64,000 nt of DNA from Acidimicrobiia bacterium (GTDB lineage: Bacteria > Actinomycetota > Acidimicrobiia > Spongiisociales > UBA11373), in contig JBBDMM010000016.1 in NCBI GenBank assembly GCA_040878325.1, positions 1-64,000 on the forward strand, in the 5' to 3' direction. The notes under the pieces were generated by a model that was not told the origin of the DNA, ran no database searches, and was given only the letters and a program-made list of their open reading frames with translations. The position numbers and the translations under genes were made by a program. Positions 26,998-30,239 of the stretch are shown piece after piece (within the stretch, counting starts at the first letter, position 1; every line of letters begins with the position of its first letter).

Positions 26998-27732
26998 ATG
27001 AACCCGGTGAAGGAGACTCAAACCACTCAGGACGCCGTTGCCGTAATCACCGGGGGGACCGGAGGGTTGGGCCGACAGGTGGCGCATCGGCTCGCCGCCT
27101 CGGGTCATCGGCTGGCCATCACCTATCTCGTCCCGCAGGAAGCCAACGAGGTCGAGGAGTTTCTACGGATGCCGGAGGACCGGCTGCTGTTGAAGCGAGT
27201 CGACTGCACCGACTCTGAGAGCGTCAACAGCTTCATCAAAGAGGTGGCGTCGACCTTCGGCCAGATCAACGTGCTCGCCTGTCTGGTGGGCGGTTGGGCC
27301 GGAGGCCGCGACGTAGAGGAGACCGACGACGTCCGCTTCGATCGAATGATCGACCTGAACCTCCGCACCTCATTCAACGCAGTCCGCGCCACCCTCCCGT
27401 ACCTGCGCGATGCCGATTGGGGACGGATCCTGATGATCGGAAGTCGATCGGCAGTAGATCCACCCGCCGGTCAGGCCATGTACAACGTGGCCAAGGCCGG
27501 GGTCATCGCCCTGGTGCGCACCATCGCCGAAGAGGTGAGCGACTCGGAGGTGACCGCCAACGTGGTGCTCCCCTCACTCATCGACACGCCCGCCTTTCGC
27601 GAGGTGGTGCCATTTGCCAACTACGTCGACTGGCCCACCCCCGAGGAGATCGCCGCCGTCATCGAGTTCCTCGTATCGCCCACCTCCGGTGTGATCAACG
27701 GCGCGATGGTCCCGGTCTACGGGAAGACGTAA
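26998..27732 (+). CDS. SDR family oxidoreductase
   Basis: TGGTGGLG, YNVAK, NVVLPSLIDTP. Confidence 0.92.
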   Translation: MNPVKETQTTQDAVAVITGGTGGLGRQVAHRLAASGHRLAITYLVPQEANEVEEFLRMPEDRLLLKRVDCTDSESVNSFIKEVASTFGQINVLACLVGGWAGGRDVEETDDVRFDRMIDLNLRTSFNAVRATLPYLRDADWGRILMIGSRSAVDPPAGQAMYNVAKAGVIALVRTIAEEVSDSEVTANVVLPSLIDTPAFREVVPFANYVDWPTPEEIAAVIEFLVSPTSGVINGAMVPVYGKT

Positions 27733-27807
27733 GAGGGCCTCGCTCGCTCGGCCGCGCGGCGATTGGTTCCGCGTTCGTGTGCCTTCCGGCTGTGCCAACA
27801 TCGTGAG

Positions 27808-28476
27808 ATGAACGAGGATGACCGCTCCCTTCGGAACACCACCTACGGATTGTTCGTCGAGCTCGGCAGAGCTCCGACGGTGAGCGATGTCGCCGAAAAG
27901 TTGAACCGGACGCCAGAGGAGGTTGTAGCCGGCTGGCGGCGGCTTCATGCCGACCATGCGTTGGTACTCCAGGACAAGGCGGACGAGATCCGCATGGCCA
28001 ACCCATTCTCGGCGGTACCCACCGCCTACCGAGTACATGCAGACGGTCGATGGTGGTATGCCAACTGCGCCTGGGATGCGTTCGGAGTCCTCGCCGCGCT
28101 CCACGCAGACGGTCACATTGAGGCGTCTTGTCCTGATTGTGGCGACCCGATCGAAATCGAAGTGAAGGCCGGGCGTCCCGACAACGATACGTTGTGGTTC
28201 CACTGCCTTGTCCCTGCCTCGTCGTGGTGGGACGAGATCGCATTCACCTGAAGCACGATGAACCTCTTCCGGTCGGAAGAACACATCGGCCGATGGCTGG
28301 GAGGACGAACTCCAGGAGCCACCATCCCGGTCTCCACATTGAACGAACTCGCCCATGCCTGGTGGAGTGACCGGATCTCCCCGAACTGGCATCCCCGCAC
28401 GCCGGAACAAGGCCAGCGCATCCTCGACGAATTGGGCCTCGACTCCGAGTTCTGGCGCATTCGCAGGCCAGGGTGA
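27808..28476 (+). CDS. Organomercurial lyase MerB-like protein, probable selenoprotein (TGA 28249-28251 read as Sec148)
   Basis: N-terminal HTH, MANPFS, WYANCAWDA (MerB Cys/Asp motif), SCPDCG. ORFs 27763..28251 and 28258..28476 are in the same frame, joined by IAFT-TGA-STMNLFRSEEH; SECIS-like hairpin follows. Confidence 0.8.
28256..28288 (+). promoter_or_regulatory. Bacterial SECIS-like stem-loop
   Basis: CGATG-aacc-TCTTCC-GGTC-GGAAGA-aca-CATCG immediately 3' of the in-frame TGA; apical loop begins with G. Confidence 0.7.
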
Positions 28477-28488
28477 GTAAACCCTCCC

Positions 28489-28518
28489 CTCGGCGAGCGT
28501 ACGTAAATGTCATCAGAG
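28489..28518 (+). repeat. 30-bp cassette-boundary element, copy 1
   Basis: CTCGGCGAGCGTACGTAAATGTCATCAGAG. Confidence 0.85.
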
Positions 28519-28560
28519 GCTGTGCCCCAATCGGGGGCGGCATCTGTCAGGATTGAGCCG

Positions 28561-29235
28561 ATGGAAGTTGAGCTCCGGGCGGGTCCCTTCTCCTATGTCG
28601 ACACCGGCGGCGGCAAGGAAGTGATTCTCCTTCTGCATGCCATGCGCAGGTCGTCCAGTGACTGGCAGCCAATCATCGAGCGGCTTGGGGACACGTACCG
28701 GATGATCGCCCTGGACTTGCGGGGGCACGGCGGCAGTAGCCGACCTGCCAGTTACTCGCTTGAGTTGATGCGAGATGACGTTCGGGACTTCGCCGATGCC
28801 CTCCGACTCTCCCGGTTCCACCTGATCGGACACTCCATGGGAGCCACGGTCGCAATTCTGTTCGCCGAACGATGGCCGAGCCGACTTGACCGCCTGGTGC
28901 TCGAAGACACCCCGCCCCCCTCAGGTCGAGAGCAGGTTTCGGCGCCACCTCCCGAGGCTCCCGAACCAGTGCTGTTCGACTGGGCGGTACTCGGCCCGAT
29001 CATCCACCAACTCAACAACCCAGACCCTGGATGGTGGACCGACCTCCCCAACATCACCGCCCCCACACTCGTCGTCGGAGGCGGCAGCGACAGCTTCATC
29101 GATCAGGGAGAGTTGGCGGACATGGTGAGTCGGATCCCGGACGCACGACTTGTAACGATCGAGGCCGGCCACCATGTGCACAGCACCAAGCCTGACGAGT
29201 TCGCATCAGCCGTCTACGACTTTCTCACCGCGTAG
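28561..29235 (+). CDS. Alpha/beta fold hydrolase
   Basis: LLLHA, DLRGHGGS, GHSMG, GGSD, GHHVH. Confidence 0.92.
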   Translation: MEVELRAGPFSYVDTGGGKEVILLLHAMRRSSSDWQPIIERLGDTYRMIALDLRGHGGSSRPASYSLELMRDDVRDFADALRLSRFHLIGHSMGATVAILFAERWPSRLDRLVLEDTPPPSGREQVSAPPPEAPEPVLFDWAVLGPIIHQLNNPDPGWWTDLPNITAPTLVVGGGSDSFIDQGELADMVSRIPDARLVTIEAGHHVHSTKPDEFASAVYDFLTA

Positions 29236-29260
29236 TGCCCTCGGAGCAAAAGTCGGCCCC

Positions 29261-29290
29261 GTCGGCCACCGTACGTAAAGGTCATCCGAG
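29261..29290 (+). repeat. 30-bp cassette-boundary element, copy 2
   Basis: GTCGGCCACCGTACGTAAAGGTCATCCGAG. Confidence 0.85.
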
Positions 29291-29351
29291 ATCGGGGTCC
29301 TTTGCGGCGACACAGGACCTTGACCCGTGGTGTCGACCAGAATCACGCAGG

Positions 29352-30239
29352 ATGAACGAAGAGCAGTTGGAGAGGCTGCGAGTCGGGAAGGGCTTCATCG
29401 CCGCGCTTGATCAGAGCGGCGGGAGCACACCCGGCGCGCTGGAACACTACGGGATAGCTGAGGCCGGCTTCCCCACCGAGGATGACATGTTCGATCTCAT
29501 CCACGAGATGCGAACTCGCATCATCACGAGTCGGAGCTTCACAGGTGATCGGATCATCGGGGTGATCCTGTTCGAGAGGACAATGGACAGCGAGATCGCT
29601 GGCCGCGCGTCGGCGGAGTACCTCTGGTCGGTCAAGGGTGTCGTTCCGTTCCTCAAAGTCGATCGAGGCCTCGCGGATATGGCCGACGGCAGCCGCCGGA
29701 TGAACCCGATACCGGACCTCGGGTCGCTCCTCGAGCGTGCCACGGAGAAGGGCGTGTTTGGTACCAAGATGCGTTCGCTGGTCAGGCTTGCCGACCCCGG
29801 GGGGGTAAATGCGGTCGTCGACCAGCAAGTCGAGATCGGTTGTCGCATACTCGATGCCGGCCTGATCCCCATCCTCGAACCGGAAGTCGACATAGACAGC
29901 CCACAGAAGTCGGAGGTAGAACTCCTGCTGAAGCACGCTCTGCTGTCGCGTCTCGACGAGCTCTCGTCCAGCCAGTCGGTGATCCTCAAACTCACGCTGC
30001 CCGAGGAGGCCGACCTCTATCGGAGTCTCGTAGAGCACCCGCGAGTCCTCCGGGTGGCAGCCTTGTCGGGAGGGTTTTCACGGGACGAAGCCAATGCACG
30101 TCTTGCGAGCAACAGTGGCGTCGTGGCGAGCTTCTCACGAGCATTCACCGAGGGCCTCCGCTTCGACCAGTCCGACAGTGAGTTCGACGCTGCCCTCGAA
30201 GCGTCCGTGGAGTCGATCTACGAGGCCTCGATCACGTAG
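29352..30239 (+). CDS. Fructose-bisphosphate aldolase class I (Staphylococcus Fda type)
   Basis: GFIAALDQSGGSTP, ILFE, PFLKVD.GL, FGTKMRS, PILEPEV, LKLTLP, ALSGG, ASFSRA. Confidence 0.93.
   Translation: MNEEQLERLRVGKGFIAALDQSGGSTPGALEHYGIAEAGFPTEDDMFDLIHEMRTRIITSRSFTGDRIIGVILFERTMDSEIAGRASAEYLWSVKGVVPFLKVDRGLADMADGSRRMNPIPDLGSLLERATEKGVFGTKMRSLVRLADPGGVNAVVDQQVEIGCRILDAGLIPILEPEVDIDSPQKSEVELLLKHALLSRLDELSSSQSVILKLTLPEEADLYRSLVEHPRVLRVAALSGGFSRDEANARLASNSGVVASFSRAFTEGLRFDQSDSEFDAALEASVESIYEASIT

Follow-up and report, generated by a model that had tools for sequence, protein, structure and literature searches.

The window, a 64,000-nt stretch of an Acidimicrobiia contig, carries a MerB-like coding region that is interrupted by one in-frame TGA. 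The question is whether this codon is a genuine stop or is decoded as selenocysteine (Sec), and what a Sec-containing protein of the MerB fold would then be used for.

A MerB-like gene with a single internal TGA

The region reads in one frame up to a terminal TGA, and its sole internal TGA, codon 148, stands in the context WWDEIAFT-U-STMNLFRSEEH (Table 1). Standard ORF calling divides the locus at this TGA: the first piece runs to 28251, and the second, of 72 aa, begins with the ATG at 28258. The first-pass annotation had described two ORFs of one frame joined by the TGA at 28249-28251, and the same frame was reproduced here. It had also expected that annotation pipelines would split the gene; besides the ORF call, 116 of the 120 closest database homologs end just before the column of this codon (hereafter the Sec column), as do 64 of the 150 best database representatives.

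Assembly error, which had been raised as a possible origin of the TGA, was ruled out by the contigs of other runs and by the TGA of homologs. Contigs from four sequencing runs, one of which may be the source of the DNA itself, contain no alternative letter at 28249-28251, and a contig from an independent study that covers 27779-28512 has 11 differences, none of them at the TGA. A scan for promoters and terminators gave nothing exceeding shuffled sequences. At a short element just past the stop codon (28487-28519) additional contigs align and a 'goes back' joint of 33 nt occurs, which suggests that the element is a small repeat present elsewhere.

Table 1. Features of the locus and of its flanks (window coordinates)
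Feature	Position	Strand	Remarks
SDR-family oxidoreductase gene, upstream	26998..27732	+	not a conserved partner
Read-through CDS, 222 aa	27808..28476	+	PF03243 at residues 67-185, E 3e-27
N-terminal winged helix	about residues 1-64 of the 222-aa protein		followed by the MerB catalytic domain
Cys87-x2-Asp90 (NCAWD), equivalent to MerB Cys96/Asp99	28066..28077	+	profile alignment to solved MerB chains
Cys108-x2-Cys111 (CPDC); Cys108 aligned with structural Cys117 of MerB	28129..28140	+	profile alignment
In-frame UGA, predicted Sec148, column of MerB Cys159	28249..28251	+	codon comparison and profile alignment
Putative bacterial SECIS	28256..28288	+	conserved upper stem and GGUC loop; lower stem more variable
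C-terminal extension of the 222-aa protein	about 25-30 aa past the MerB-matched part		
Alpha/beta hydrolase gene, downstream	28507..29235	+	not a conserved partner
Class I fructose-bisphosphate aldolase-like gene, two genes downstream	29235-30239	+	ordinary

The Sec column in homologous genes

The first 600 candidate stretches of a genome scan yielded at least 549 confirmed relatives, and the best 80 loci were kept. Among these best 80 of at least 549 relatives, the Sec column is TGA in 79 and TAG in one. When all collected loci were pooled into 132 distinct genes, the column was TGA in 119, TGC in 12 and TAG in one; no Trp codon, Arg codon or TAA occurred there in these 132 genes. The alternation of Cys codons and TGA that the first-pass annotation had proposed to look for is therefore present, and three full-length Cys homologs are 59-61% identical to the window protein. 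Read-through as Trp or an alternative genetic code was ruled out by the lack of TGG in all 132 genes and by the TGA with which the gene itself terminates.

The single TAG comes from Blastococcus jejuensis, a species of which a soil isolate (JCM 15614) is in culture. Its tRNA-Sec has the anticodon CUA, and its formate dehydrogenase has TAG at the Sec site (NQARI*H). In the Blastococcus family a homolog was found in 9 of 81 genomes, with TAG in the column in six and TGA in one; the remaining two homologs are distant and have no internal stop. A tRNA-Sec(CUA) was identified in all six TAG genomes (in five by the Rfam model, in G642 by pattern only), and the TGA genome has tRNA-Sec(UCA), this last observation being a single, unpublished genome (G607). 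The TAG relatives carry the same SECIS as the TGA genes. UAG-encoded Sec with tRNA-Sec(CUA) was reportedly described in Geodermatophilus/Blastococcus by Mukai et al. in 2016. Metagenomes gave 73 TAG-plus-hairpin matches. Intact MerB-like genes make up 15 of these (13 distinct), and their products share 71-77% identity with the Blastococcus protein and 60-67% with that of the window; the other 58 matches were not MerB-like and were discarded. The joint switch of codon and anticodon is a natural control for the predicted reading of this codon by tRNA-Sec.

It also provides the strongest argument against a split gene, since the codon tracks the tRNA-Sec anticodon and a true stop would have no reason to do so. 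That the TGA is a real stop, followed by re-initiation at the ATG at 28258 to give a two-chain protein, or that the locus is a pseudogene, appears very improbable. An in-frame ATG does lie three codons past the TGA in 105 of the 119 TGA genes, and the databases carry the 147-aa piece. Yet the other 14 genes have no in-frame start codon within the next seven codons, TAA is absent from the column, the part of the protein past the UGA is conserved as much as the N-terminal part, and termination would remove exactly the catalytic residue.

A conserved hairpin downstream of the TGA

The hairpin CGATG..TCTTCC-GGTC-GGAAGA..CATCG, which the first-pass annotation had placed 4 nt past the TGA, was found exactly there. 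Its lower stem pairs 28256-28260 (CGATG) with 28284-28288 (CATCG), and its upper stem pairs 28265-28270 (TCTTCC) with 28275-28280 (GGAAGA) around the GGTC loop at 28271-28274. On its own, the hairpin is modestly above chance. The segment 28252-28295 gave z = -2.5 against shuffles (4/200 shuffles) and a 52-nt window z = -1.4; a 71-nt window adopted a different fold (z = -0.8). A loose SECIS-like pattern matches 100 of the 51,319 TGA triplets of the source genome.

What raises the hairpin above chance is its conservation among homologs. The loop codons CGG-TCG (Arg-Ser) are unchanged in all 119 distinct TGA genes; elsewhere in the same genes CGG makes up 33% of the other Arg codons and TCG 38% of the other Ser codons, and other conserved Arg and Ser columns have mixed codons. 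The loop hexamer is present in 1 of the 12 Cys genes. In 109 distinct 45-mers the GGUC loop is always present (109/109) and the six stem pairs hold in 107-109. The pairs are mostly invariant or exchange U-A for U-G, so that variation is mostly one-sided and double compensations are few. The consensus model of bacterial SECIS elements (available text of PMC13188914) has four constraints, and the hairpin agrees with each of them (GGUC loop, 6-bp stem, loop 19 nt past the UGA, MFE of -15.5 kcal/mol). By the established bacterial mechanism, SelB would bind the GGUC hairpin and deliver Sec-tRNA(Sec) to the UGA.

Selenocysteine machinery and co-occurrence

The source genome (98.9% complete) contains all four genes whose presence the first-pass annotation had proposed to check, namely selA, selB, selD and tRNA-Sec(UCA) (selC), each above cut-off, selA adjoining selB on contig C6. 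Its SelD is of the Cys type. At E 1e-40 the genome gave no match to TIGR01553, the model of the selenium formate dehydrogenase, and the clients of its Sec system appear to be small redox and metal proteins.

Among the genomes of the best 80 loci of at least 549 relatives, selA was found in 76, in 72 of them above cut-off. We also drew 401 genomes evenly across the phylum, taken to be Actinomycetota from the closest named homologs. In this phylum sample selA occurs in 267 genomes, which contradicts the earlier statement that selenoproteins are uncommon in Actinomycetota. Within the sample, 65 genomes contain matches to PF03243, 82 matches in all, of which 32, in 32 genomes, have an internal TGA; the position of the TGA column was checked for 28 of these 32 (G385, G407, G229 and G201 lie outside the check). 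selA is present in 30 of the 32 genomes with a TGA-bearing MerB gene, versus 21 of the 33 MerB genomes without an internal TGA. The carrier genomes are related, so these counts overstate independence and no P value is attached to them. selA was not found in 4 of the 80 carriers and 2 of the 32 phylum-sample carriers; selB or tRNA-Sec was seen in five of these six genomes, and in the sixth, the small MAG G085, neither was found.

Two other loci of the source genome (G000) were recorded. On contig C12, at 238523 (minus strand), a thioredoxin-like sequence with the motif FWAEW-U-SVC (UxxC) is followed by a hairpin whose GGUC loop lies 35 nt downstream; it is probably another selenoprotein, of a known motif class. 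Two codon-bias scans for selenoproteins do not amount to a census, since both missed the MerB-like gene itself. On contig C2, at 139699-139788 (plus strand; L013), there is a second tRNA with a CCA (Trp) anticodon, 90 nt long and with a long variable arm, which scores 50.8 on the tRNA-Sec model and lies directly after an IS1595-family transposase; the normal tRNA-Trp is on C9. A tRNA of this type was not found in 60 relatives, and L013 is possibly a mobile tRNA with a non-Trp body.

Protein fold and metal site

The Pfam MerB model PF03243 matches the read-through protein with 95.4 bits (cut-off 27), and the match crosses the UGA. An AlphaFold2 model built from a 55-row alignment reached a pLDDT of 96.2 and a pTM of 0.92, and all 11 Foldseek matches with E <= 0.001 were MerB or MerB2. 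A wide structural search ranked MerB2 5c17 first (Z 17.8, rmsd 3.2, 186 aligned residues; TM 0.69) and also returned MerB 3f2g (Z 14.2, rmsd 4.3, 183 aligned residues); the next row (Z 9.4) covered the winged helix only. Identity to the characterised MerB and MerB2 structures is 16-23%.

The residues essential in MerB are Cys96, Asp99 and Cys159 (PMC8261052, available text). In the profile alignment with solved chains, codon 148 pairs with MerB Cys159, the Cys left intact by the C160S mutation. The signature positions Cys96, Asp99 and Cys117 are present as such, and position 159 would be Sec instead of Cys. The NCAWD segment, which had been proposed as the Cys-x2-Asp motif of MerB, indeed aligns with Cys96/Asp99. 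Across the 55 alignment rows Cys87 (or Sec) is invariant and Asp90 occurs in 90% or more; Asp90 is kept in all of the best 80 of at least 549 relatives. Of the earlier name, 'MerB-like organomercurial lyase', the MerB-like part stands on this fold, and 'organomercurial lyase' is a reading of function from the fold.

Taken together, the UGA is almost certainly decoded as Sec by means of the SECIS, giving a 222-aa protein of the MerB fold with Cys87, Asp90 and Sec148 predicted at its metal site. The Sec protein of this length proposed in the first-pass annotation thus gains support for read-through from the codon column, the SECIS codons, the sel genes and the codon-anticodon switch, all of them sequence comparisons.

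Family tree, spread and fusions

A quick tree of 90 rows was built with a midpoint root and without SaoL or R831b MerB. A branch with SH-aLRT 99 separates 67 rows (57 TGA, 9 Cys and the TAG gene) from 23 rows without Sec. The Cys rows form three groups within the Sec clade, and this distribution suggests that Sec was present in the ancestor of the clade and that reversions to Cys followed. Unpublished genomes contribute the tree rows G451 (Sec) and G257 (Cys), the G451 row of the fold alignment and a few entries of the tallies; dropping them would leave the pattern of tree and tallies unchanged. The family was found in 32 of the 401 genomes of the phylum sample, and single named loci occur in Chloroflexota, Acidobacteriota and Dormiibacterota.

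In one subclade, set on a long branch, Asp90 is replaced by Glu; of the six rows in this subclade, four combine Sec at both sites with C-terminal fusions. In these loci (L114, L115, L121 and L123, from G010, G008, G007 and G052) both metal ligands are encoded by TGA, in the motifs U-G-[ML]-E (U-x2-E) and N-U-S. From their motifs, we take the fusion partner of L114 and L115 to be P-loop ATPase-like and that of L121 and L123 to be nucleotide-cyclase-like. Among 12 long relatives scanned, four carry a LuxR HTH (P0138, P0168, P0202 and P0206). Further MerB-like fusions involve GNAT (P0142 and P0155), glyoxalase (P0181), PhzF (P0199 and P0222), DUF3303 (P0170) and an RNase H-like domain (P0236), and P0141 is a tandem MerB. 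The fusions to LuxR, GNAT, glyoxalase and PhzF fit a binding or sensing domain equally well as an enzyme.

These architectures raise the possibility of a selenoprotein that does not cleave carbon-metal bonds at all, Cys87 and Sec148 forming instead a redox pair or a metal-binding or sensing module. The two-Sec fusions and the LuxR-linked relatives speak for it, as do the Cys that stands in place of Asp90 in many full-length Cys relatives and the extra CxxC of the window protein. We nevertheless regard it as rather unlikely for the window protein, whose subfamily is unfused and retains the MerB proton donor, Asp90, in all 80 close loci.

Gene neighbourhood and mer genes

A conserved operon was ruled out across 81 loci by crude ORF calling and clustering. 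The cluster of the upstream SDR gene appears in 6 of the 81 loci at varying positions, and that of the downstream hydrolase in 10, with varying position and strand. Apart from the gene itself and its shadow frames, the largest clusters are an ABC ATPase, a response regulator and a hydrolase (10-11 of 81 loci each), all generic, and no mer genes are among the 30 most frequent neighbour clusters.

In the source genome no mer operon gene adjoins the locus, as had been noted earlier; the picture is incomplete in that a merA scoring above cut-off lies on the same contig (C16:198530-200203), about 170 kb away, accompanied by a divergent gene of the MerR type but not by a merB. For the family at large, 54 carriers taken as a subset of the relatives, phylum and locus sets were examined, and just 6 of them had a merA above cut-off. 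With no conserved neighbourhood and merA so rare among carriers, mercury resistance is unlikely to be the main role of the Sec MerB-like protein.

Directly after this merA (C16:200223-201641, plus strand; L130, L167) lies a gene for a MerA/dihydrolipoamide-dehydrogenase-like flavoprotein. In its redox CxxxxC the first Cys is replaced by a TGA (GGT-U-INVG-C), and 31 nt downstream of this codon stands the AGGUC loop of a hairpin (z = -2.0). The flavoprotein scores under all listed NCBIfam cut-offs, the same TGA is present in G001, and it is a candidate Sec reductase in a merR-merA locus. A term match in the available text of PMC13188914 returned no Sec-containing MerA-like reductase family. As a partner of the MerB-like protein this reductase was rejected: at E 1e-110 just 2 of 101 genomes of the order contained it, so it is not family-wide.

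That the selenoprotein is a true methylmercury demethylase in vivo, its Hg(II) passing to a distant MerA or being trapped as Hg-Se species, we judge unlikely. The four positions of the MerB signature (PMC8261052, available text) are all kept, with Sec for Cys159, and merA does exist in the source genome. A missing merA would be compatible with demethylation, since 895 genomes with MerB and without MerA are on record in that source. Its rarity among the carriers and the lack of mer genes around the loci weigh against this reading. Moreover, mercury binds selenolates very tightly, so that release of the product should be slow.

Probable function and significance

Most likely, by analogy with MerB, the protein works on its own, apart from the mer system, as a lyase or scavenger of organometal(loid)s, an assignment that we hold to be somewhat better than even. 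The selenolate of Sec148, together with Cys87, would bind a soft metal or metalloid centre, as in MerB, and Asp90 would donate the proton that breaks the carbon-metal bond. A carbon-metal(loid) lyase or scavenger is our best guess because of the retention of Asp90 in the close loci. Methylmercury may be a side substrate, and the physiological substrate is probably handled without MerA. The complete explanation, Sec recoding plus a stand-alone organometal(loid) lyase or scavenger, can be no surer than its functional half and is likewise only a little more probable than not.

Recoding of the UGA is close to certain, and the family is large and mis-annotated. The merB survey of PMC12874090 discards sequences without Cys159 and that of PMC8261052 screens on this residue (available text of both); such filters would drop members of the family, because these are stored cut just before the Cys159 equivalent. 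If C-Hg bonds are cleaved, surveys understate how much demethylation Actinomycetota of soils and sediments could carry out; if they are not, the family points to another carbon-metal(loid) or redox chemistry on the MerB fold. Sec and Cys forms that differ by 40% in sequence exist in nature, and they offer a direct way to test what selenium contributes. A more far-reaching proposal, which we offer as tentative and on balance doubtful, is that selenoenzymes of the MerB fold have a second, large lineage that is independent of SaoL, accounts for 32 of the 82 MerB-domain matches in the phylum sample and goes unseen by merB surveys. Its members would be active Se-dependent demethylases or dealkylases that act in soils and sediments, without MerA, on methylmercury or on other organometal(loid)s, and its derived two-Sec form would be the metal-sensing input of cyclase and ATPase proteins.

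Comparison with known systems

MerB (R831b; PDB 3f0o and 3f2g) and MerB2 (5c17) share with the window protein the fold and the positions of Cys96, Asp99, Cys117 and Cys159. The window protein differs in its predicted Sec for Cys159, in its C-terminal extension and in its low identity; the gene stands outside a mer operon, and across the family the genome is usually without merA. Its scores are far below the MerB equivalog cut-offs (NF009710, 37.9 against 193 bits; NF033555, 33.4 against 200 bits).

The closest known system is SaoL (NF040728), the MerB-like selenoprotein of the SAO system (Haft and Gwadz, bioRxiv 10.1101/2022.07.06.499078), in which Sec also occupies the Cys159 equivalent of a MerB fold that keeps Cys-x2-Asp; like the present family, it is truncated at the UGA in databases. 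The literature thus already contains a MerB fold with Sec in this position, in line with the earlier remark that MerB-like selenoproteins have been reported in other bacteria. According to the available text of the preprint, SaoL has a CU dipeptide, belongs to a nine-gene locus and was present in 45 of 52 loci among 15,511 genomes, all of anaerobes. In contrast to CU, the window protein has TU and the family mostly TU, also NU and SU; in the genes listed, the residue before Sec is T, N, S, L or R and never C. In place of the nine-gene SAO locus, the window gene has an SDR and a hydrolase as neighbours, and no conserved cluster emerged from the 81 loci. A search of the source genome for SaoC, made without a positive control, was blank. 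Scored with the SaoL model, whose cut-off is 140 bits, the window protein reached 59, the highest value among the 55 aligned members. By the definitions of the two groups, the predicted Sec MerB-like family is outside both SaoL and canonical MerB.

In the literature on MerB and selenocysteine, SaoL was the sole MerB-like selenoprotein found. Two reviews (PMC13188914 and PMC9312934, available text) each contain one, under the same accession, and the later one names it SaoL; a term match for MerB gave nothing in the available text of PMC13326102, PMC5029168 and PMC13745706. No description of the present family was found in the literature searched; BSepDB may list it.

UAG-encoded Sec with tRNA-Sec(CUA) is known in general terms, no taxa being given in the available text of PMC10778597. 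The Blastococcus-family relatives use TAG in this same way, as does the formate dehydrogenase of B. jejuensis; what differs here is that the switched codon lies in a gene of the MerB fold, the window's own gene keeping the ordinary UGA.
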